DNA from: Candidatus Sungiibacteriota bacterium | GTDB taxonomy: Bacteria; Patescibacteriota; Minisyncoccia; Sungbacterales; SURF-37 | DNA length: 64,000 nt | Reading direction: 5' to 3' | Assembly (NCBI GenBank): GCA_016203665.1 | Contig: JACQMJ010000008.1 | Span: 19,150 to 83,149, forward strand | Part shown: positions 346 through 60,887 of the stretch, one piece after another | Layout: each line of letters starts with the position of its first letter | Position numbering within the stretch: the first letter of the stretch is position 1 | Position numbers and translations under genes: made by a program | The notes under the pieces: generated by a model | What the model saw: only the letters and a program-made list of their open reading frames with translations | Databases searched by the model: none | What the model was told of the DNA's origin: nothing

Positions 346-1719
346 TCAGGGCTGGGTCATAAGATATAGTACCCGCCCTGAACTTTCAAGATTTCTGCGC
401 TCGCGTATCACGAAATGCTTTCGGAACGCCGCTTCAAAGGCCCCGGCGGTATAGTCGGCAAAAATGTCCTCGCGGCCGGCCAGAAGTTTTTGTACCTGGG
501 AATCCTCTTTGGGCACGAACTCAATGATCAGCGCCGGCGACAAACGGCGGAAAAACTCCGCGATATGCAAAAAGGGGAGGTTATTGGCAATGGCGAGATG
601 ATGAACGAGCGCCAGGGCCAAGAGCATGTCGGCCGGACCCCGTTCCTGGAGGGACATCCGCTCTTCGTGCCCCCAGCCGACGGCCGGACTGGGGTTTAAG
701 AGATCCATTACCAGCGGCAGGATGCGCGTCTCATTCTTACTGACGGTCTCCAGGTAATTTTTTTCCACGGCGGCCGGGTCATAATCAATGGCCACGACAA
801 ATACGCCCGGACGGGCGGCAATACGGCTGAAAAGACCAGTGTTGGCGCCGAGGTCCCAGATGGTTCCCGGGCCGATCTTGGATACAAATTCGTCCACGAT
901 CCTCTTTTTTTGCTCCAGGGCTCCGGGAGAGTAGTTGGTCATATCATAGTAGTCGGCCCACTCGGTGCCGTGCGGCCGCCAGGAACAGCGTTTCACCGCG
1001 CTTTCCAGACTTTCCACCATACCCAGGAGGGCGGCCCGGCTTACTGCTGACTTTTCGGATCGGATGGGCCGTCCGCTAAAATACTTCTGGCTCCGCGAGT
1101 GCAGAAATACATGGAGGAAGAGCGAGGCGTGAAAACGCGCCCGGAACGGCAGCAGGGCGCTGGCCAGATCCAAGGGGATCCCGTCAAGGAAAATCCGGAA
1201 GACCTGGTTCAGACGGACGTCCTTGAACGCCATCAGAGCGAGCGGCGCGAGAAAATGCTGGCAGAACTGGCGATAGGCCGCCCAGGGACGGCCTTCCCGG
1301 TAGGGCTCAAAGGAAAGAGTATCAATGAGTATCGGCCTGCCGCCCTTGAATTGAACGTTAAAGGCGCTGGCATCTTTGAGCGACATGCCAAAGGCCAGGG
1401 CTCGCTTCTGAATGGCCAGCGTCAGGAGGGCCGCATCCTGCAGCTGACTAAAACTCCACTCGTAGGGGTAGGAGACAAACTCTGCCAGCTCCGGCTTGAT
1501 GATTTTATAGGCCGACACGGCCGACTCCGGCGCGACGGCGGCCTCCTCGTGGTTGACCAGCATACCCGCCCGAGCCAGCTCCTTGAAGAGGCCGGAGCGC
1601 ATGAGCTCCTCATAGTGCGCCCGGTACACGACGTTCACCTGCCGATAGAGCGTACCCTCTCTCCAAAATACGAAACCACTGGGGTCCCGGAACGAACCGG
1701 CTACCCTCTGGTGAGGCAT
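346..1719 (-). CDS. two-domain class I SAM-dependent methyltransferase (N-terminal domain of unknown function + C-terminal Rossmann MTase)
   Basis: The C-terminal half has MTase motif I, DLGANTGLFSRIAA, followed by the acidic motif II VVAIDYD. The start was chosen at the second ATG (1719), which overlaps the TGA of the upstream small gene (TGATG coupling). Confidence 0.65.
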   Translation of the reverse strand: MPHQRVAGSFRDPSGFVFWREGTLYRQVNVVYRAHYEELMRSGLFKELARAGMLVNHEEAAVAPESAVSAYKIIKPELAEFVSYPYEWSFSQLQDAALLTLAIQKRALAFGMSLKDASAFNVQFKGGRPILIDTLSFEPYREGRPWAAYRQFCQHFLAPLALMAFKDVRLNQVFRIFLDGIPLDLASALLPFRARFHASLFLHVFLHSRSQKYFSGRPIRSEKSAVSRAALLGMVESLESAVKRCSWRPHGTEWADYYDMTNYSPGALEQKKRIVDEFVSKIGPGTIWDLGANTGLFSRIAARPGVFVVAIDYDPAAVEKNYLETVSKNETRILPLVMDLLNPSPAVGWGHEERMSLQERGPADMLLALALVHHLAIANNLPFLHIAEFFRRLSPALIIEFVPKEDSQVQKLLAGREDIFADYTAGAFEAAFRKHFVIRERRNLESSGRVLYLMTQP

Positions 1720-1943
1720 CATGCTTGGTTTGAACCGCCCCGCCGCCAAACGCGATCAAACAGAAAGCTCTTGACCCGCCGCCAAAAGTTTTTTACGGCA
1801 AACGAAGCGCCAAAGAGGCTCGCCAGGATGATTTGCAAAATAAAACTGCCGGTTCCCGGATCAAGGTAGGCCGCGGCATCGGATGGCAACACCATCAGGA
1901 GAAGCGCAAAACATAATAGAGGGAAAACTGCCATAGGGGTCAT
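1719..1943 (-). CDS. small secreted/membrane protein (signal peptide + one TM), hypothetical
   Basis: An internal ATG at 1943 gives MTPMAVFPLLCFALLLMVLPSDAAAYLDPGTGSFILQIILASLFG..., a signal peptide followed by a hydrophobic helix and a basic tail. The longer track ORF has an Arg-rich N-terminal extension that is probably artefactual. Confidence 0.45.
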   Translation of the reverse strand: MTPMAVFPLLCFALLLMVLPSDAAAYLDPGTGSFILQIILASLFGASFAVKNFWRRVKSFLFDRVWRRGGSNQA

Positions 1944-1965
1944 GATACGCCTTTTTTTTGAATTT

Positions 1966-2145
1966 GTGAACCCCGTTACAACCCGGCCTGAAGGCCGGGG
2001 CCTCCAATGAGTTTTATGGATTCTTCCTTCCTCCCCGCCCTGCCCCGTTAGAGGCTCGCACCAGAGGCGCGGCAGACGCCTGCGGCGTCTTGCCTCTAAC
2101 GGGGCCTGAAGGACGGGGCGTCCGGGTTGTAACGGGGTGAACCCC
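1966..2145. repeat. composite nested palindromic element (outer 16-nt IR enclosing an inner element bounded by the 14-nt IR gccccgttagaggc / gcctctaacggggc)
   Basis: Outer IR is ccccgttacaacccgg (1971-1986) / ccgggttgtaacgggg (2122-2137). Inner IR is gccccgttagaggc (2042-2055) / gcctctaacggggc (2092-2105), with a hairpin-forming loop (agacgcc tgc ggcgtct). Direct repeats cctgaaggccgggg / cctgaaggacgggg are also present. The same inner termini recur at 60557-60632. Confidence 0.6.
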
Positions 2146-2202
2146 ACCCACGGCCTTCGGCTACGGCCTCTGGGCTGTAACCCTTAAATGACGGAGAGTC
2201 CG

Positions 2203-3243
2203 CTATCCGGCTTTGCTGCCGCGAAACATCTCAAATCGCGTCCATACGTTCCGGCGGAGCGTGGCGTAGCGGGTGAGGTAGTGCCAATAGAGCACCAGCG
2301 GCCGGAGGGCGCGCCGGAGGCGCGCCGCCTCCCCGGCCGCGGGAATGAACCGGGCGCGGAAGGGTTCGACTCCTGTTTTTGCGGCCGCCAGGCGCATATG
2401 GCCCGCGGGCAGGCCGAGGCGCTTCTGGGCGGCGAGCGCTTCCGGCGCCTTGCCTTCGTCAACGTCCAGGAACAGCACCCTGAATCCTGCGGCCCCGACA
2501 AAGGCGGCAAGAATTTCTGGAGTGTACATGTACGGATGATCAAGCTGCACGCCGACCCATACCCGGCCGCTTCGCCTGACCTGGTGCCGAAAATTTTTGA
2601 CCTCCAGTATCAGGCGGCCATCGTGTTTCAGGGTCCGCCAGGCCCAGCTGAAAAAATAGGCCGGATCAAGGAAGTGATTGAGCGATTTGACGCAGACAAT
2701 GTTATCCGCCGCAGGGAGACGGATCGGCAGCGCTTCAATATTTTCTATCAGGGCGGCGTGGGTGGGTATGCCGTTCGCGGCTGCATACGCGGCCTCGGCC
2801 GGTACGGGCTCAATGCCGACGGGTTCAATCGGGAGCCGGTCGCGGAGCCCGGCCAATACTCCGCCTTCGCTCGATCCCACGTCAATCGTCACGCCCGGCC
2901 GCATATACTGCCCCAGCCGCTCGGCCAGCCCCTGGCCATGGCGGCGCGCTTTTGCAAAGCCCCAGCCGATCGGCCGGGATTCGTCGGTGTGGGCGCTGGA
3001 CTTGTAGCGGTGCTGCACTCCGCTAACGGAGGAATAGAACTGCTCGTACCATGCTTTCGCCGGCCGGGGGTTCAAAAATATGAGCCCGCAGCTCTTGCAG
3101 AGAACGGTCCGCACCGGCACGCCGACGCAATCTTTCCGGGAGAGCACGGTAAATTCCTCTCCGCCGCAGAGGCGGCAGGGAATTGTTTCCATGAGGGCAC
3201 CGTCCAGAAATCCGGGATCGATCTTGCGGCCGCTGATTTTCAT
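2203..3243 (-). CDS. class I SAM-dependent methyltransferase with N-terminal zinc-ribbon
   Basis: N-terminal CRLCGG...CKSCG is a CxxC-X17-CxxC zinc ribbon. Motif I is IDVGSSEGG. The architecture is Methyltransf_23/11-like. Confidence 0.65.
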   Translation of the reverse strand: MKISGRKIDPGFLDGALMETIPCRLCGGEEFTVLSRKDCVGVPVRTVLCKSCGLIFLNPRPAKAWYEQFYSSVSGVQHRYKSSAHTDESRPIGWGFAKARRHGQGLAERLGQYMRPGVTIDVGSSEGGVLAGLRDRLPIEPVGIEPVPAEAAYAAANGIPTHAALIENIEALPIRLPAADNIVCVKSLNHFLDPAYFFSWAWRTLKHDGRLILEVKNFRHQVRRSGRVWVGVQLDHPYMYTPEILAAFVGAAGFRVLFLDVDEGKAPEALAAQKRLGLPAGHMRLAAAKTGVEPFRARFIPAAGEAARLRRALRPLVLYWHYLTRYATLRRNVWTRFEMFRGSKAG

Positions 3244-4713: not shown

Positions 4714-5844
4714 TCAGAACGCCCGCTCCATGGCCTCCAAAATATAGCGCGAGCGCGCCAGCACGGTATGGCCCGCCCGTACATCGGCCGCCCAGCGATC
4801 CGCTATGGCTTCCCGCTCGGCCGGATGAGCCAGGTAGTGGCGGATTTTATCCAGGAGCGCGGGAGCGTCTTTCAAATGATAGCGTCCGTCCCGGCATTCG
4901 GCAGCGTAGAGAACGGCGTTTTGGCCGTCGCGAAGCGGCGGACCGGCGGTTTCAATATAGGGCTTGGCCGCGATGAGCAGCGTTCGGGGCGCGAGGCCGA
5001 CCTCACAGTGGCGATACGAGTCCCAGGAAATGCCGGAGGGTGAAAGCGCCATGCGGCTTCCGGCAATATTATCCCAGTACTCCCGCATGGCCAAAAACGC
5101 CCCCCGCGAGGTATGTTCCAGAATGAGCGCGCTCGGGAACGTATCCCGTACCAGCGAAACGACTTCCTGCCGCTCGGGTTGAGCGATGGGCCGCGGCCGA
5201 CCGCTATAAAAAACATCTGACTTTTTCCGTGCCTGATGGTCGAAGGCGTACGATGCGGGGCGGACCGGGGAGGGCGCCAGCGGGAACACAAGGTCTGTCC
5301 GGTACCCCAGCGGCAGCTCTTTTTTAAAATATAGGTCAAAGTCCCGGCCCGGAACCAAACCGCGGAAAAGTTCCCGTTCCGTATCTGCCCCCTTACCGCC
5401 CCCGTAGAGAGACGGATGATCATGCACATCAATCACGGCTACGGGAATGGCGCGCCTCCGCGCCGCGGCAATGAGAAACCCCGCCCTGCCCCAGGACTTG
5501 GCCGAAACCAAGAGCGCATCAACCGAAGGCAGGATACGCTCGGCTTCATCGGCGCCGACGAAAGTCGGGGGCGGCGCGCCGATGCAGGAGGGGTAGGGGC
5601 AGGCCGGGGGAACTTCTTGGGATAAAAAATGCGGCAGATACCTCCCGAATGAAAATACGTGTTCCCCGCCCAGCAGGGCGGGCAAATCGCCGTAAAAAAT
5701 AAGCTCGGCCGAATAAATTTTCGGCTGGCTGAAATGGCGCGCCGCGGCGCGTGCCGCAGCCGAGAGGAATGAGCGCCATCCTGGAGGCAGAGGAGATTCA
5801 AGGAACCGCTCCTCCGGAACGAATAAGAGGTTCTTGATCTTCAT
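4714..5844 (-). CDS. glycosyltransferase family-1-like protein (CgeB/DUF3880-type), paralog A
   Basis: The C-terminal GT-B-like half ends in AEREAIADRWAADVRAGHTVLARSRYILEAM. A conserved ACPYPSC Cys motif is present. It is about 50% identical to the adjacent 5841..6962 gene, and the two overlap by 4 nt. Confidence 0.45.
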   Translation of the reverse strand: MKIKNLLFVPEERFLESPLPPGWRSFLSAAARAAARHFSQPKIYSAELIFYGDLPALLGGEHVFSFGRYLPHFLSQEVPPACPYPSCIGAPPPTFVGADEAERILPSVDALLVSAKSWGRAGFLIAAARRRAIPVAVIDVHDHPSLYGGGKGADTERELFRGLVPGRDFDLYFKKELPLGYRTDLVFPLAPSPVRPASYAFDHQARKKSDVFYSGRPRPIAQPERQEVVSLVRDTFPSALILEHTSRGAFLAMREYWDNIAGSRMALSPSGISWDSYRHCEVGLAPRTLLIAAKPYIETAGPPLRDGQNAVLYAAECRDGRYHLKDAPALLDKIRHYLAHPAEREAIADRWAADVRAGHTVLARSRYILEAMERAF

Positions 5845-6962
5845 ATGATCCCGGTCATGCGGTCCAGGATGTACTGCGAACGCGCCCGTACCGTGTGGCC
5901 GGCGAGCACGTCAGCCGCCCAGCGATCCGCCATGGCTTCGCGTTCGGCCGGATGCGCCAGGTAGTGGCGGATCTTATCGACGAGATCCTGCGCCTTCTTC
6001 AGATAAAACCACCCGTCCCGAAACTCGGTGTCGTAGAGAACGGCATTGACGCCGTCCATGAGCGGCGGTCCGATAGTCTCAACATAGGGCTTGGGCGCGA
6101 TCAGAGCCGTGCCCGGCGCGAGTGCTGACTCGCAGTGCCGGAAAGAATCCCAGTCAAAGCGCGAGGGCGAGAGGGCCAAGCGGGCGGCCGAAAGGCCGTC
6201 CCAGTAGTCGCGCAGTGTCAGGAACGTGCCGTGGGTCTTATGATCAACGAGTTCGGCTGCCGGGAAGTTCTGCCGGATAAGTTCAATCACGGCCGTGCCG
6301 TCGGGCTGTCCATGCCCCCGCATCTTGCCGCTGTAGAAGATGTCTACTGCCTTGGGCAGAGCGCGGAACTGATAGACCTCGGGCCGGAGCGGAGCCGGAG
6401 CCAGCGGCAGAACTATCTCGGTTTGATAGCCCAGGGGCAAATTCTCCTTGAAGTAGAGATCAAAGTCCGGCCCGGCCTCAAGGCCGCAGGTAAGCTCGGC
6501 CGAGATGTTTCGCGCCTTGTAAATTGACTGATGATCGCTGGCGTCGAGGATCGCCACCGGGATGCCGCGCCTGCGAGCACTCGCCCGCGCGAGCGCTCCG
6601 CGGGCTCCGGCCTGCACAGAGACCAGCACCGCATCCACGTTCGGCAGGATGGGCTCAAGTTGCCGCTCCGTGATAATCGTTCCGGCCGGCGTAGCGTGGC
6701 AAGATGGATAGGGGCAGGCCGGCGGCGGGGGGGCGATGTGCAGGTGGGGATAGGTGCGGCCGAGAATGAAGGTATTTTCCTGACCGAGGATGGCGGGTAT
6801 GTCGCCGTAACGCTGAATCTCGGAATTATATACGGAAGGCATGCCGAAGATCCGGCGCTTCGCACTCTTGAGGGCGCGGCTGACAAGAGCCGCGGCCGGA
6901 TGAGCCGGTTCGCGCTCGACCAGGGCATCAGCGGGAACGATCAGCAGGCGCCGAATCGTCAT
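5841..6962 (-). CDS. glycosyltransferase family-1-like protein (CgeB/DUF3880-type), paralog B
   Basis: It is colinear with 4714..5844 throughout (YGDIPAILGQE.../PPPPACPYPSC/...AEREAMADRWAADVLAGHTVRARSQYIL). Confidence 0.45.
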   Translation of the reverse strand: MTIRRLLIVPADALVEREPAHPAAALVSRALKSAKRRIFGMPSVYNSEIQRYGDIPAILGQENTFILGRTYPHLHIAPPPPACPYPSCHATPAGTIITERQLEPILPNVDAVLVSVQAGARGALARASARRRGIPVAILDASDHQSIYKARNISAELTCGLEAGPDFDLYFKENLPLGYQTEIVLPLAPAPLRPEVYQFRALPKAVDIFYSGKMRGHGQPDGTAVIELIRQNFPAAELVDHKTHGTFLTLRDYWDGLSAARLALSPSRFDWDSFRHCESALAPGTALIAPKPYVETIGPPLMDGVNAVLYDTEFRDGWFYLKKAQDLVDKIRHYLAHPAEREAMADRWAADVLAGHTVRARSQYILDRMTGII

Positions 6963-10607: not shown

Positions 10608-10712
10608 TGTATCCCAGGTTGGGTTTTGGGTGTTGGCTGCTATCATGCTCTCAAGAAAGAATACCCTGCCGGCAAAGCGGCGGTAACGACGCCTCCAGTA
10701 AAGTCAACGCCG

Positions 10713-11453
10713 TTACAGCCCGGAGCGGTGCTCCAGGACGTAGCGGATTGTTCGGACGAACGCGCGCGGAATCTCAACGAAGTGATTGATCTTGGTCCGG
10801 CCGTGCGGCCGTTCAGCGAACGTAACCGGCACCTCGGCGATCCGAGCGCCGCGGCGAGCGCCGAGAAGTACCATCGCAATGAGGAGGAAGCTTGATGCCT
10901 CCTCAAGCGCCAGACTTTCCCAGAGCGAGCGCCGGATGGCGCGGCAGTTGGCGGTGAAATCATGGAGCGGAATGCCGGTGAGCCAGCGGATAAGCCGGTT
11001 TTCCCAGGCGCTCGAGAAACGCCTCATTTTGAGCTCGAGCGTCGGCGCGGCAAAGAGCGAACCGGCGGAGTGGCGCGACCCGACGACGAGATCCTGCCCC
11101 GCCGCAAGCGCCCGATACACCCTAAGCGCATCCGGCGGCGGATATGAGCCGTCAACGTCAATGGACAAAATCATCTCGCCCCGCGCCCGGTCATAGCCCT
11201 CACAAAGCGCACTGCCGAATCCGCGCCGATCATGGCGCACCAGGAGCTCAACTGAATAGCGACCGCAAAGCTCACGCACGACGGCCGCCGTGCCATCCGG
11301 CGAATTATCGTCCACGACAATAATCTCGTGGTCAATCTCCCGAAAATGCTCGGCGAGCGCCGGAATGAACCTCCGGGCGTTCTCCCGCTCGTTATAGGTC
11401 GGGATAACGATAGAAAGCGCCGGCGAACGGCCATTCGAACCTTCAGCATTCAT
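10713..11453 (-). CDS. GT2 glycosyltransferase, polyprenol-phosphate sugar transferase (Dpm1/GtrB-like)
   Basis: GT2 hallmarks: LSIVIPTYNEREN, IIVVDDNSPDGT and the DxD motif SIDVDGS, in a Dpm1-like C-terminal pattern. The start is at 11453 (MNAEGSNG). Confidence 0.75.
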   Translation of the reverse strand: MNAEGSNGRSPALSIVIPTYNERENARRFIPALAEHFREIDHEIIVVDDNSPDGTAAVVRELCGRYSVELLVRHDRRGFGSALCEGYDRARGEMILSIDVDGSYPPPDALRVYRALAAGQDLVVGSRHSAGSLFAAPTLELKMRRFSSAWENRLIRWLTGIPLHDFTANCRAIRRSLWESLALEEASSFLLIAMVLLGARRGARIAEVPVTFAERPHGRTKINHFVEIPRAFVRTIRYVLEHRSGL

Positions 11454-12840: not shown

Positions 12841-13710
12841 CTATACAGCACGCCGCTGCCGCTCCAGCGCAATCAAGCGGGCGATGATTTCCGGCAGCTC
12901 GATCTTGGGCTGCCAGCCCAGCCGGGCATCAGAATCGGCGGTATCACAGGTGAGCGTAAAGGACTTTGCCGTCGGCGCCGTGAACTTAATCGTCCCGCCG
13001 GTCTGCTCCGCACAGAGCCGCGCCAGGTCAGCCATGGCGATGCGGTTCCCCGAGAGGAAAAACTGGTAAAAGCCGGGGGCGGCCGTGCGAGCAAAGTCGA
13101 TGGCGCACCGGAAACCGTCGGCCGCATCATCCACAAAGAGCCACTCGCGCTCATGCATCCCGCTGCCGTAGACCGCTATAGGCTCGCCGGAGAGCCCGGC
13201 GCGGACAAACTCAATGGCCGCGCTCGGCGTTGGGGTATCGCCGAGCACCATGGTGGGCCGGAGGGCAAGCGCGGTCATGCCGAAGCGCCGGGCGTACTCC
13301 TCAATGGCATGTTCGGCTGCGGCCTTGGAAGCGCCGTAGGCGTGGATCGGCCGGAAGGGCGAATCGAGCATGTTGGGATGGGCCGGGTCGTTCGAGCCGT
13401 GCACCGTGAGCGAGCTTGCGAACACGAATGCCTTCACTCCGGCCATGCGGCAAGCCTCAAGAAGGTTCAGCGTGCCGGCGAAGTTCGTACGGAAAAGTTC
13501 GGCGATGTTCTGGGACCCAACTCCGCCCAGAAGTGCGGCCAGGTGCACCACGGCATCCGGCTTGATCATGGCTATGCGCTCGCCGATTAGAGCCGCATTC
13601 CGAATATCCGCCTCCGGGAGATCTAAACTGGAAACGATAAAATCCCGCAGGCGTTCAGGGAGATGCCGGCCGATGAACCCGGATCCGCCGATAACAGCTA
13701 CCTTGTCCAT
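12841..13710 (-). CDS. NAD-dependent epimerase/dehydratase (extended SDR)
   Basis: Rossmann motif VAVIGGSGFIGRHL and the catalytic YxxxK element (HAYGASKAAAE) are present. The start was taken at the internal ATG 13710 (MDKVAVIGGSG). The N-terminal extension in the track ORF is unlikely to be real. Confidence 0.7.
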   Translation of the reverse strand: MDKVAVIGGSGFIGRHLPERLRDFIVSSLDLPEADIRNAALIGERIAMIKPDAVVHLAALLGGVGSQNIAELFRTNFAGTLNLLEACRMAGVKAFVFASSLTVHGSNDPAHPNMLDSPFRPIHAYGASKAAAEHAIEEYARRFGMTALALRPTMVLGDTPTPSAAIEFVRAGLSGEPIAVYGSGMHEREWLFVDDAADGFRCAIDFARTAAPGFYQFFLSGNRIAMADLARLCAEQTGGTIKFTAPTAKSFTLTCDTADSDARLGWQPKIELPEIIARLIALERQRRAV

Positions 13711-13732: not shown

Positions 13733-14608
13733 TCAGCGCTCGAGACCGAGCTTTGAGCGCTGGATAGGGATAAGACGGTCGAGCATCGCATCAATGCCGG
13801 TTGTCGCGCGCCAGCCCAGCCGGGCATCAGAATCGGCGGTATCACAGGTGAGCGTAAAGGCCTGGGCCGTGGGTTTAACAAATTCCATACGACCGCCCAG
13901 ACGCGAAATGCATTTCTCGGCGAGATCTTTCATGCTAATGCGGTTCCCGGAAAGGAAAACGGGATGGTAGCCCGGGGCGGCAGCGGCAGAGAAGTCAACG
14001 GCGCGTAAAAACCCCTCGGCGCAATCATCAATCCAAAGCCATTCCCGCTCGTGCGTCCCCGTACCGAATAGCTTGATGGTGTCATCGCGCAGGAGCGTCT
14101 GCACGAAATCAACGGGCGCATGATTCATGTACGTATCCCCCAGGATGCTCACCGGCCGCACGGTCACGATGCTCATGGCATGGAGCTTGGCATACTGCAT
14201 GAGGCAGTACTCCGCCGCGGCCTTTGAGGCACTATAGGCGTGCTTGGGGTGAAAGGGCGAATTCACGGTGCGGGGATCACCAATAGCATTCTCGCCGTGC
14301 ACTGTCAGGGAGCTCGCAAAGACGTAGCGGCGCACGCCATGCTCGGCGCAACTCTGTACCAAGTTCAGGTTGCCCAGCGCATTGGTCTCGAATATCTCGT
14401 AGGCGTTCTTGGAGTACATTGTCCCCAGCACCGCGGCGAGGTTCACGACCATATCCGGCCGCGACTGTTCCAGCCGTTGGGAAAATGAAGCCGGGCGGCG
14501 GATGTCTACCTCCGGTAAATCCCACACCTCGACCTGGTGATCCGGCCGCAGCTGTTCCACGAGCGGACGACCGATGAACCCCCGGCCACCGACCACAATG
14601 ATGTTCAT
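13733..14608 (-). CDS. NAD-dependent epimerase/dehydratase (extended SDR), tandem paralog
   Basis: Motifs VVGGRGFIGRPL and HAYSASKAAAE are present. It shares a 50-nt identical stretch with the 12841..13710 gene (peptide FTLTCDTADSDARLGW). Confidence 0.7.
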   Translation of the reverse strand: MNIIVVGGRGFIGRPLVEQLRPDHQVEVWDLPEVDIRRPASFSQRLEQSRPDMVVNLAAVLGTMYSKNAYEIFETNALGNLNLVQSCAEHGVRRYVFASSLTVHGENAIGDPRTVNSPFHPKHAYSASKAAAEYCLMQYAKLHAMSIVTVRPVSILGDTYMNHAPVDFVQTLLRDDTIKLFGTGTHEREWLWIDDCAEGFLRAVDFSAAAAPGYHPVFLSGNRISMKDLAEKCISRLGGRMEFVKPTAQAFTLTCDTADSDARLGWRATTGIDAMLDRLIPIQRSKLGLER

Positions 14609-36178: not shown

Positions 36179-36218
36179 CATTAACATTTCTCATACGATC
36201 GTATGAGAAATGTTAATG
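36179..36218. promoter_or_regulatory. perfect 40-bp AT-rich palindrome (cattaacatttctcatacga|tcgtatgagaaatgttaatg) between two GT4 genes
   Basis: The two 20-nt arms are exact reverse complements with no spacer. The element overlaps the stop codon of 36213..37346 and ends 7 nt upstream of the ATG of 34999..36171. Its GC content is about 30%, inside a genome of >60% GC. Confidence 0.6.
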
Positions 36219-42576: not shown

Positions 42577-42632
42577 GCCGGTCGCCCAAGCACCTCAAAA
42601 CGCCCCCGATGGGGCGTTTTGAGGTGCTTGGA

Positions 42633-58953: not shown

Positions 58954-60258
58954 TTACGTAACCTGTGTAGGAGTAGAATGATTCCGCATCGTAATGCGTT
59001 GCATGAGTAGGAACCCGATCGCCGCGGCGAGCGCAAGGCCCGCCCCGTATGAGAAGGCGACATGGCTCCCGAAATGCTGACTCAAGTAGCCGAACGCCAC
59101 GCTCGCCGGCAGGAGCGCGAGGCCGGTCGCGGCGTTGTAAATACCAAAGGCTGTGGCCCGGATCCCCGGCGGAACGAGGCTGGCGACAATGGCGCGGCCG
59201 ACACCCTCGGTGAGCGCGGCGTAAATGCCGTAGGCGATAAAGAGGAACCAGATACTTTGCGGCGTGGCAACAAACGCCATGCCGAGATAGACCGCCGCGA
59301 AAAGGAAAAGGCCGGCCGTATAGGTATTCCGCTTGCCGACCCGATCGGCGACGGCGCCGAAGGGTGTGGCAAGAACCGCAAACGTGATGCTAAAAACAAA
59401 ATAGAGAATCGGAATGAGCGCAATCGCGATGCCGACATCCCTCGCCTTGAGGATGAGAAACGCCTCGGATGCTTTACCAAGCGATGCTACCGCGGCAACG
59501 GCGAGAAAAAGAAAGAACGGCAGGCTAAGCCCTACAGGGCTTGATATGCGAGCCCTACTTGAATTGTTAAACGAATTAACACGAATATCGGATACTTGCG
59601 GCCGCGCCGGCTTATCCGCCGTAGCCGTGGCGGAGGCGGAAGGCGCGGCCGCAGCCGTGCCATCAGCCTTAATCTCGCGCACGAAGAATATCAGGATGAG
59701 GACCGCAAAGAAGCTGGCGATGAACGAGAACAGAAAAAGCAGGCGATAATTTTGATTTATAAGCGGCAGTATGGCAAAAGCGGCGAGCGGACCGAGTGCG
59801 GCGCCAAGCGTATCCATGCCGCGGTGGAACCCGAAGGCGCGGCCGTAAAGGGCGCGCTCCGTGGAGAAACTGATGAGCGCGTCGCGGGGGGCATCGCGCG
59901 TGCCCTTGCCCACGCGATCCATGAAGCGTACCCCGAGCACGTGCCATGGCGCAGTGGCTGCGGCAAGGATCGGTTTGGCGAGCGCCGATAGCGAATAGCC
60001 GGCTACTACCAGAGGCTTTCGCCTTTGCCAGCGGTCGGATATCCGGCCGGATACGATCTTCAAAATACTCGCCGTAGCATCGGCAACTCCCTCCACGACT
60101 CCAACGAAGGCATAGGACGCGCCGAGTACCGAGGTTAGAAAAATCGGTATGAATGGGAAGATCATGTCCGATGACAAATCGTTCAGGAATGACACGACCC
60201 CCATCCAGATAACGTTCGGCGACAACCCCAAAAACGTTTTTTTCGCCTGCTGGTTCAT
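58954..60258 (-). CDS. MFS transporter with low-complexity central-loop insertion
   Basis: 12 TM helices in 6+6 arrangement. MFS motif A-like GRISDRWQRRKP after TM2. The central loop carries AAAAPSASATATADKPARPQV.... Confidence 0.75.
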   Translation of the reverse strand: MNQQAKKTFLGLSPNVIWMGVVSFLNDLSSDMIFPFIPIFLTSVLGASYAFVGVVEGVADATASILKIVSGRISDRWQRRKPLVVAGYSLSALAKPILAAATAPWHVLGVRFMDRVGKGTRDAPRDALISFSTERALYGRAFGFHRGMDTLGAALGPLAAFAILPLINQNYRLLFLFSFIASFFAVLILIFFVREIKADGTAAAAPSASATATADKPARPQVSDIRVNSFNNSSRARISSPVGLSLPFFLFLAVAAVASLGKASEAFLILKARDVGIAIALIPILYFVFSITFAVLATPFGAVADRVGKRNTYTAGLFLFAAVYLGMAFVATPQSIWFLFIAYGIYAALTEGVGRAIVASLVPPGIRATAFGIYNAATGLALLPASVAFGYLSQHFGSHVAFSYGAGLALAAAIGFLLMQRITMRNHSTPTQVT

Positions 60259-60887
60259 AAGGGAGCGGCGGCGAGGTGCTTATACTCCGCCCCTGACGGT
60301 TTCAGGTGCGACTCCATCACGGTGACCTCATTCGCCTCAAAGCTAAAATCAACCTCGCCGAGCGTGCGGGTTTTGGATTCAAGTTCCTTTAATTCGCCGG
60401 GCTCGAAGCGCGCGAGCGTTACGTGGAGATGCACCGGTCGGCTCTCCGGTTTCAGCGGCGGCAATTCTTTCTCTGCGCCCCACACTTTCTCAATCTTCTT
60501 TTTCAGCCGCACGAGTTCCGGCGGCGTATCGCCTTCGAGCCAGATCATCCGCGCCTGCCCCGTTAGAGGCCCGTTCCGCTTTTGGCGGAACGGCAGCTCC
60601 GACATCCGGTCGGAGCTTGCCTCTAACGGGGCCTGTACGCCGGCCGGCGCCAGCACTACGCGCGAAAAACGGATCAGAAACGGCTTCCCGAAACGGCTAC
60701 GGCCGGCGAGTGCGGAGAGTACTTCGACCTCACGATTTTCCAAGTAGACCGGTGGAACGATGGTAATATGCCAGTTCGTAGGCGCGAGCCACCAAATGGG
60801 CAGCCAGCGCCATTGGGCGATGGCATCTTCAATCCCCCGCTTCAATTCCGGCGGCAAGTCAATGACAACAAAAATGCGCCGCTTCAT
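60255..60887 (-). CDS. ligT: 2'-5' RNA ligase / 2H phosphoesterase (LigT/ThpR family) carrying an in-frame repeat-element insertion
   Basis: Two H-x-T/S-x motifs (NWHITIVPP and PVHLHVTLARF) are present. The spacing between them is about 30 aa longer than in canonical LigT. The extra segment APLEASSDRMSELPFRQKRNGPLTGQA is encoded exactly by the palindromic element at 60557-60632. Confidence 0.65.
   Translation of the reverse strand: MKRRIFVVIDLPPELKRGIEDAIAQWRWLPIWWLAPTNWHITIVPPVYLENREVEVLSALAGRSRFGKPFLIRFSRVVLAPAGVQAPLEASSDRMSELPFRQKRNGPLTGQARMIWLEGDTPPELVRLKKKIEKVWGAEKELPPLKPESRPVHLHVTLARFEPGELKELESKTRTLGEVDFSFEANEVTVMESHLKPSGAEYKHLAAAPL
60557..60632. repeat. second copy of palindromic element with 14-nt terminal IR gccccgttagaggc / gcctctaacggggc, inside ligT CDS
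   Basis: Termini are identical to the 2042-2105 copy, and the flanking ct...ctg also match. The internal loop differs but is itself hairpin-forming (ccgttccgc tttt ggcggaacgg; ctccgac atccg gtcggag). The insert length of about 81 nt equals 27 codons. Confidence 0.6.

Follow-up and report, generated by a model that had tools for sequence, protein, structure and literature searches.

Two nested MITE-like elements as the probable origin of a composite palindromic region in a Candidatus Sungbacteria genome

How could two perfect inverted repeats come to lie one within the other in a single intergenic spacer? Such a composite occupies positions 1966-2145 of a 64,000-nucleotide stretch (hereafter the window) from a Candidatus Sungbacteria (Candidate Phyla Radiation, CPR/Patescibacteria) metagenome-assembled genome (MAG), between a methyltransferase gene and a gene for a small protein. 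The original prediction, made from the sequence, held that one palindromic element had been inserted into or next to another, and also named a complex RNA structure, a terminator or attenuator, and a mobile-element hotspot. Our analysis indicates, with a probability of about 0.85, that the region consists of two nested non-autonomous transposable elements of the miniature inverted-repeat transposable element (MITE) kind. Size, terminal repeats, variable 4-bp duplications, dispersed copies, and empty sites all agree with the definition of MITEs; of its features only a known parent is lacking. The locus itself is ordinary and probably neutral, and the family of frame-neutral elements to which it belongs is widespread in ultra-small groundwater bacteria and seemingly undescribed. 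In the following, L-numbers label the loci compared and P-numbers label the ligT homologues.

Anatomy of the composite region

The outer inverted repeat has arms of 17 nt (1970-1986 / 2122-2138), one more than the 16 first noted, with 135 nt in between. Nested within it is an inner inverted repeat with arms of 14 nt (2042-2055 / 2092-2105). Both pairs of arms are 100% complementary. From base composition, we estimate that chance would yield a perfect inverted repeat of 17 nt within 200 nt only ~0.001 times per 64 kb, and both repeat types were found again, with the same anatomy, in many unrelated genomes. On these two grounds, neither repeat is due to chance.

Direct reading of the sequence showed that both inverted repeats are bordered by 4-bp direct repeats, a different one for each. 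The outer element is laid out as TGAA, CCCCGTTACAACCCGG ... CCGGGTTGTAACGGGG, TGAA, and the inner one as CCTG, CCCCGTTAGAGGC ... GCCTCTAACGGGG, CCTG; the terminal motif CCCCGTTA is common to both element types. The direct repeats noticed at the outset are real and are accounted for by these duplications together with hairpin sequence. The two copies of GTGAACCCC, at 1966 and 2137, consist of the target duplication TGAA, 4 bp long (1967-1970 and 2138-2141), and neighbouring bases. The CCTGAAGG(C/A)CGGGG pair is part of a 26-nt, 85% direct repeat (1980-2005 / 2098-2123), and its second CCTGAAGG copy is the inner-element duplication CCTG (2105-2108) followed by the remainder of the outer-element hairpin. 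This hairpin, which the inner element interrupts, resembles the other hairpin of the outer element, at 1988-2001. The features are as follows.

1967..1970, no strand: outer element target-site duplication TGAA, left (direct reading; the same 4-bp flank repeat is exact in 32 of 41 distinct family copies)
1971..2137, minus strand (family reference orientation): outer MITE-like element, CAACC type, 167 nt as found, with CCCCGTTACAACC termini (repeats and reconstruction)
1971..1986, no strand: outer element left terminal inverted repeat, CCCCGTTACAACCCGG (repeat search)
2039..2042, no strand: inner element target-site duplication CCTG, left, at the apex of the outer-element hairpin (direct reading; the family consensus has a single CAGG)
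2043..2104, no strand: inner MITE-like element, GAGGC type, 62 nt, with two internal hairpins (repeats and family comparison)
2043-2055 and 2092-2104, no strand: inner element 13-nt terminal repeats, CCCCGTTAGAGGC / GCCTCTAACGGGG (repeat search)
2105..2108, no strand: inner element target-site duplication CCTG, right (direct reading)
2122..2137, no strand: outer element right terminal inverted repeat, CCGGGTTGTAACGGGG (repeat search)
2138..2141, no strand: outer element target-site duplication TGAA, right (direct reading)
2142..2183, minus strand: hairpin region next to the outer element, tentatively a decayed relic of a third element (inspection and fold)

The minus strand of 2142-2183, GGGTTACAGCCC...GTGGGTGGGG, is in part similar both to the terminal repeat of the outer element and to the 'GGCCGTAGCCG' interior found in some GAGGC-type copies, and this hairpin may, tentatively, be a decayed third element. 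A further match to the outer repeat, with 2 mismatches, was observed at 10708-10723.

Relatives of the two elements and their empty sites

A metagenome scan with the outer-type pattern CCCGTTACAACC N60-90 GGTTGTAACGGG returned 54 stretches, mostly from groundwater assemblies. The modal length of these copies is 101 nt, and their interior is conserved and oriented. When the 62-nt inner element and one CCTG were subtracted from the outer element of the window, exactly 101 nt were left, and the reconstructed element was nearly identical to those at L161 and L173. The outer-family consensus CCTTCAGGGCGGGG (minus strand) contains a single uninterrupted CAGG at the position where the window has CCTTCAGG, the inner element, and CAGGGCGGGG. 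Thus, insertion of one palindromic element into another, as originally proposed, is borne out by the terminal repeats and duplications that each element has of its own, by the 101-nt reconstruction, and by the uninterrupted target in the relatives.

The flanks of the outer-type copies carry exact 4-bp repeats in 32 of 41 distinct copies, against a mean of 16.5 and a maximum of 26 when permuted. Most of these duplications are TTCA, and the minority flanks (TGAA, TTTA, and others) co-vary on both sides. The hairpin loops of the outer family, TTCA/TTTA, resemble the preferred insertion target, and only to this extent does the idea of a mobile-element hotspot hold. Other nested pairs were found at L061, L072, L078, L083, and L125. 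On a 5.9-kb contig (L134, Ga0155869_143), GAGGC-type arms or copies at 241, 1104, and 2217 have the same CTCG flanks, and a CAACC-type copy lies at 1833-1934; this arrangement could reflect either a gene segment present more than once or local clustering.

The inner type was sought in one genome per species (596 Gb) with 10+10 nt of its termini and a gap of 25-55 nt. More than 119 loci were found, against ~17 expected by our own calculation, so that the family is far from being confined to this locus. The figures given below for the inner type refer to the matches listed. By record titles, ~83 of the loci are from Patescibacteria, 17 from Omnitrophota, 7 from Planctomycetota, and 2 from Elusimicrobia; single matches in other phyla mostly lack the family flanks. 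Positions −1 and −2, which the search left unconstrained, are C in 116 and 119 of 122 copies, respectively. Just outside CCC/GGG, the 4 bases on one side exactly repeat those on the other in 63 of the 122 copies, whereas 5.4 were expected with permuted right flanks. These duplications vary by copy (TGAA, TCAA, TAAA, TTGA, TTTA, TTCA, CAAG, CCAG, and others), with the consensus T-N-N-A and, less often, C-N-N-G; in the window, TGAA occurs once and CCTG twice.

The interiors of the inner type are variable, with two hairpins in many copies and A+T-rich sequence in others. In its interior, the inner element of the window is only 2 nt away from the copies at L060 and L104. There are also subfamilies with other inner arms (GAAAT, GAAGC, GACCT, GAGAT, and CAACC), and the terminal motif YCCCGTTA(G/C)A is common to all of them. 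Element size across the family is 51-108 nt, which is too short for coding a transposase. One GAGGC-type copy, whose interior is A+T-rich and forms no hairpin and whose flanks are unmatched (CCTG / TGAA), is common to three Planctomycetota MAGs (L027, L034, and L064); it looks like either an inherited orthologous copy or a recombination product of two elements.

The second site in the window that was linked to the composite beforehand, an insert in ligT, indeed carries the same 14-mer. Apart from the composite, this 14-mer of the inner repeat occurs in the window only at 60557-60570 and 60619-60632, within the ligT open reading frame (ORF). The four matches compare with 0.72 expected, and none of 100 shuffles reached four.

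60554..60635, no strand: GAGGC-type element in ligT, CCTG + 74 nt (60558-60631) + CCTG; ligT gene at 60255-60887, minus strand

The ligT insert of 78 nt (the 74-nt element and one CCTG) amounts to 26 codons in frame. The ligT protein of the window has 210 aa, compared with 184-189 aa in most of 78 homologues, and the 26-residue insert QAPLEASSDRMSELPFRQKRNGPLTG is absent from all 12 homologues that were aligned. A base-precise empty site was found at L186, which has GGCATCCAGGCGCGGATG where the window has GTACAGG, the element, and CAGGCGCGGATG: there is one CAGG before insertion (L186) and there are two after it (window). The filled allele is present in three independent Logan assemblies. An AlphaFold model of the window's ligT protein has a mean predicted local distance difference test score (pLDDT) of 86, and the score falls below 50 only at residues 88-109, corresponding to the insert. 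The insert lies between two strands of a core modelled with pLDDT above 90.

The ligT homologue at L186:790-860 (P0008, GCA_030697585.1), which lacks the insert of the window, has a different in-frame palindromic insert of ~69 nt elsewhere, with the arms GCCTGCCCGTCC / GGACGGGCAGGC. This suggests that other families of palindromic elements, unrelated to the present one, are also translated in these genomes. Small extra segments were also seen in the ligT homologues P0042 and P0044.

An empty syntenic site, whose existence would be expected if the composite had been inserted, was also looked for at the composite itself. The window belongs to contig CAZLFX010000002.1 of the MAG GCA_964559385.1, and the source names attached to its proteins point to Candidatus Sungbacteria. 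The composite lies in the 259-nt spacer between the following two genes, in a glycosyltransferase/methyltransferase cluster.

2203..3243, minus strand: class I methyltransferase, 346 aa, upstream flank (ORF/protein annotation)
1719..1943, minus strand: small hydrophobic protein, 74 aa, downstream flank (ORF/protein annotation)

The syntenic locus L126, from another Sungbacteria MAG, has the same gene order, and its methyltransferase and small protein share 67% and 57% identity, respectively, with those of the window. Its methyltransferase-to-small-protein spacer is only ~27-50 nt long and contains no palindrome and no element, that is, the whole composite is missing.

Many copies of the family lie inside genes. 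A copy was taken as genic when a stop-free frame extended for at least 30 codons on both sides of it. By this definition 39 of the listed copies are genic, and 38 of these keep the frame; their host genes include SecA (with two inserts), UvrA, UvrB, pyruvate phosphate dikinase (PPDK), ThrRS, and RecJ. In ThrRS, the same insert was found in two Omnitrophota species. The element length is 2 mod 3 in 89 of 123 listed inner-type copies, so that element and duplication together make a multiple of three. The genic copies use only two frames, those free of the terminal TAG/TAA, which read PVRG...ASNG (25 listed copies) and PLEA...PLTG (13). Many other copies lie at gene edges, where TGA stops abut the element, or where a terminal A or G followed by TGAA rebuilds ATG or GTG, as at the starts of AlaRS, GreA, and RpiB. 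Multiple-of-three length, two open frames, and start-codon regeneration would thus often make insertions in genes or at their edges harmless in these compact genomes, which would account for the persistence of the elements.

Regeneration of ATG from the last A and TGAA (or a similar duplication) was observed for copies with T...A termini at L155, L156, L162, L083, L098, L053, L029, L078, and L067, for example at an AlaRS-like N-terminus in L155 and an ATP-grasp-like start in L162. Both element types were also seen at the G/FT site of prepilin-like genes (GFT-insert-G-FT...) at L014, L021, L030, L106, L115, L138, and L164. In these the leader peptide is lengthened, and the terminal GGG of the element together with the duplication rebuilds the cleavage site.

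Proposed mechanism and alternative explanations

We propose that a 101-nt element with CCCCGTTACAACC termini would first have entered the methyltransferase/small-protein spacer, duplicating TGAA (TTCA on the gene strand), and that a 62-nt element with CCCCGTTAGAGGC termini would later have entered the hairpin apex of the first, duplicating CCTG. Both would belong to one family with YCCCGTTA(G/C)A termini and hairpin-rich interiors that occurs across Patescibacteria/CPR, Omnitrophota, and Planctomycetota. The ~10-13-bp termini would be recognised by a transposase acting in trans and joined to target DNA cut with a 4-bp stagger at Y-N-N-R sites, which are mostly T-N-N-A. Nesting might then follow from the likeness of the elements' own hairpin loops (TTCA/TTTA) to the preferred target. 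From the duplications alone we infer that a DDE-type enzyme could be responsible for mobilisation.

Several observations weigh against two nested MITE-like elements. No transposase with these termini was found. About half of the listed copies have no exact 4-bp duplication, and the flanks are unmatched in some nested cases (L072 and L061) and in the three Planctomycetota copies. The window of 64 kb contains only three elements. The internal hairpins have been preserved: 74-88% of cells are paired, and compensatory changes occur in places. This points to some structural constraint at the DNA or RNA level. Finally, the outer family shows an asymmetric preference for C at position +5: in 35 of 41 distinct copies (L131-L184), a C follows the duplication on just one of the two sides (TTCA, then C). 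The opposite side has no base preference after the duplication, and a one-sided C is unexpected for symmetric termini. This asymmetry may be due to selection (G/FT Phe-Thr codons, or a −35-like TTCACA) or to orthologous copies that are not independent.

An autonomous parent was sought as arm pairs 300-6000 nt apart and as solo arms in ~1.2 Mb of loci, and none was found. All arms in these loci pair within 300 nt or have decayed partners, and there was no arm pair at insertion-sequence spacing beyond what the short elements explain. Pfam searches on the ORFs beside solo arms returned housekeeping proteins only and no transposase, and all-against-all clustering of 1,627 ORFs yielded no protein family in more than 6 of 119 loci. 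BLAST searches of plasmid and phage collections found no element match. Carriage by viruses was rejected as well, the sole viral-contig match being without CCC/GGG flanks and looking like chance.

The alternative that survives best, though we consider it unlikely, is that the elements are mobile without a staggered cut, through an HUH single-strand transposase (IS200/IS605-derived or REP/RAYT-like) or a site-specific recombinase, with the flanking tetranucleotides as recognition sites. Hairpin-rich palindromes of this sort also occur in repetitive extragenic palindromic (REP) sequences and at IS200/IS605 ends, the outer family is nearly always flanked by TTCA, and no DDE transposase turned up. 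However, IS200/IS605 and REP elements have one fixed target and are not known to make target duplications. Here, inner elements with identical termini have many different flank repeats, and yet the two sides match copy by copy (63 of 122 listed, 5.4 expected). The minority flanks of the outer family (TGAA, TTTA, and others) co-vary between sides, only a single tetranucleotide was present before insertion at the empty ligT site, and no Y1/RAYT-type gene recurs near the copies. The same holds for the comparison with REP or bacterial interspersed mosaic elements (BIME) with RAYT and with elements derived from IS200/IS605. These are likewise small, hairpin-forming, and present in many copies, but they are extragenic, are not known to make target duplications, and have a fixed tetranucleotide, whereas the present duplications vary by copy and genic copies occur.

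It is quite improbable that the composite is a structured cis-regulatory RNA (an attenuator, a terminator, or a stabiliser or processing site of the mRNA) controlling the small-protein gene, with palindromes kept for their function in RNA. The minus-strand RNA fold of the region is very stable (−133.7 kcal/mol, z = −7.4 against shuffles); the element is 23 nt upstream of the start codon; and the outer-family hairpins are paired in 74-88% of cells, with a few compensatory changes. But the plus strand also folds strongly (z = −5.2 against shuffles), and the family copies give no strand-specific RNA signal: in the outer family G-U mismatches (47) are about as frequent as A-C mismatches (37), so that neither strand is favoured. 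In the same family, RNAalifold recovered only the invariant outer stem, and a hand-drawn structure of three hairpins gave weak covariation. Orientation shows no bias with respect to neighbouring genes (14 vs 10 near starts, 7 vs 12 near stops). The syntenic relative L126 lacks any such sequence, and copies lie inside unrelated housekeeping genes.

No Rfam 15 family was found in the region at gathering threshold, nor in permissive local scans. Two tRNAs were the only hits above threshold in the window, the best hit in the region was CRISPR-DR9 with 22.2 bits (threshold 45), and nothing reached threshold at the ligT copy. The idea of a complex structured RNA finds no support, in view of this lack of a match, the missing strand asymmetry and orientation bias, and the weak covariation. 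A terminator or attenuator, which was also suggested at first, finds no better support: the minus-strand hairpin is followed by TTCACAAATTCAAAAAAAAGG, so there is no T-run after it on the transcribed strand, and a terminator scan of both strands of 1966-2145 gave no terminator-like site.

For the genic copies, it could be supposed that they are removed rather than translated, by RNA splicing or by ribosomal bypass as in T4 gene 60 or mitochondrial 'byp'. A strong hairpin between identical short repeats would be like take-off and landing sites, and some elements lie in essential genes. Removal would impose neither a length nor a stop constraint, so the conserved frame (38 of 39 listed genic copies, with only two stop-free frames in use) counts against it. 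We regard this as very improbable, and it concerns genic copies only, not the intergenic composite.

Least probable of all is that the palindromes are binding sites of host proteins or recombination sites (operator, attC-like, or dif-like) rather than transposons: the terminal 10 nt are strikingly conserved across phyla, but copies lie in frame within SecA, UvrA, ThrRS, and other genes, have variable flanking duplications, are absent at orthologous sites, and form no cassette arrays with a recurrent adjoining integrase or regulator. By eye, GTTAGAG / CTCTAAC is loosely like GTTRRRY / RYYYAAC, which we take to be the integron attC core; an integron attC was set aside because of the context (genic copies, duplications, and no cassette arrays).

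Nested MITE-like insertion is therefore the explanation retained here. As to its wider meaning, we see an even chance that these elements represent an undescribed cross-phylum superfamily of ultra-small 'frame-neutral' transposons, with YCCCGTTA(G/C)A termini and a 4-bp duplication, whose length and ends would have been shaped for harmless translation and which might be moved by a possibly new or piggyBac/IS1380-like transposase. If so, SecA, UvrA, and ThrRS would have been extended by 17-28 residues, start codons rebuilt, and prepilin G/FT sites preserved, and the superfamily would parallel the Rickettsia palindromic elements (RPEs) on a much broader scale, in genomes that are thought to be streamlined.

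Known systems and the neighbouring genes

The present elements share several properties with bacterial MITEs such as Correia of Neisseria, RUP of pneumococcus, and ERIC: they are short and non-coding, have terminal repeats and short duplications, occur in dispersed and nested copies, and have no transposase of their own. They differ in that a parent insertion sequence sharing their ends did not turn up, that several phyla have the conserved termini in common but interiors are wholly different between subfamilies, that they stand at the very small end of the size range, and that insert lengths are strongly biased to multiples of three. In a census of conserved MITEs from 2024, Patescibacteria go unmentioned. 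Searches of the open-access literature on MITEs in CPR, the terminal motifs, Rickettsia elements, and IS1380/piggyBac found no description of the family; an earlier description is possible.

The closest analogue in behaviour, though not the same family, would be the Rickettsia palindromic elements. According to a later summary of the original work, they consist of selfish palindromic DNA that has entered unrelated housekeeping genes of reduced genomes in frame and is translated as extra peptide loops with the protein fold left intact (Ogata et al. 2000, as summarised in PMC10969869). The likeness lies in the in-frame genic insertion (38 of 39 listed genic copies) and in the preserved fold (ligT model). 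In contrast, the hosts are unrelated (Alphaproteobacteria vs CPR, Omnitrophota, and Planctomycetota), similarity in sequence is not to be expected, and RPEs measure ~100-150 bp. RPEs are also not known to have clear terminal repeats and duplications, and the elements described here have both.

The 4-bp duplication, the CC(C) ends, and the ~13-bp terminal repeats recall what we take to be the features of piggyBac / IS1380-type ends, which is presumably no more than a lead. The terminal sequences are not demonstrably related, and no IS1380/piggyBac-like transposase was found near any copy. Targeting of TTAA as in piggyBac was ruled out, the target being T-N-N-A or C-N-N-G, with TTAA once among 67 exact duplications in the matches listed.

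In CPR and Omnitrophota, genomes are small, genes are densely packed, and mobile DNA is usually said to be scarce, yet elements of 50-110 nt are tolerated inside their essential genes. The family appears to move between or within many CPR/Omnitrophota lineages. It affects gene calling and the comparison of protein lengths in such MAGs, explains some contig breaks, and offers presence/absence patterns as strain-level markers. Beside the Rickettsia elements, it would be a second and much wider system in which to study the addition of peptide loops to proteins by selfish DNA. An enzyme that recognises 10-13-bp ends and makes 4-bp staggered joins could be of practical interest.

At the locus under study, the composite is most likely a neutral passenger in a transcribed spacer, to which it has added a very stable hairpin and no terminator. 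The start codon of the small-protein gene lies 23 nt past the duplication of the outer element. With their duplications, the nested elements measure 105 and 66 nt, both multiples of three, and no stop codon interrupts the composite in the reading frame of the small-protein gene, which gives rise to a 142-aa ORF at 1719-2147 (minus strand). This ORF starts with GTG and reads through the whole composite in frame with the 74-aa gene. Judged from the sequences compared, it is probably spurious, since the L126 orthologue has no such extension, and it is a risk for gene callers. The composite should thus be annotated as repeat or mobile-element DNA, and the 142-aa ORF should not be called a gene.

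A promoter-like sequence, TTCACA-17 nt-TATCAT, was noticed at 1942-1970 (minus strand) as a consensus match only; its −35 hexamer begins with the outer duplication TTCA, and its −10 hexamer TATCAT overlaps the start codon of the small-protein gene. An independent assembly ends 24 nt inside the outer element, which fits the behaviour of a repeat because repeats tend to break assemblies.

Other repeats of the window were also recorded. Two further perfect palindromes, at 42586-42631 and 36179-36218, are built of 21-nt arms with a 4-nt loop in one case and of 40 nt without a spacer in the other; neither has the CCCGTTA motif. A 300-nt repeat of 73% identity (4729-5028 / 5856-6155) links two adjacent paralogous genes (ORFs 4714-5844 and 5841-6962), and a 64-nt repeat of 94% identity is found at 12912-12975 and 13810-13873, with its copies 898 nt apart.

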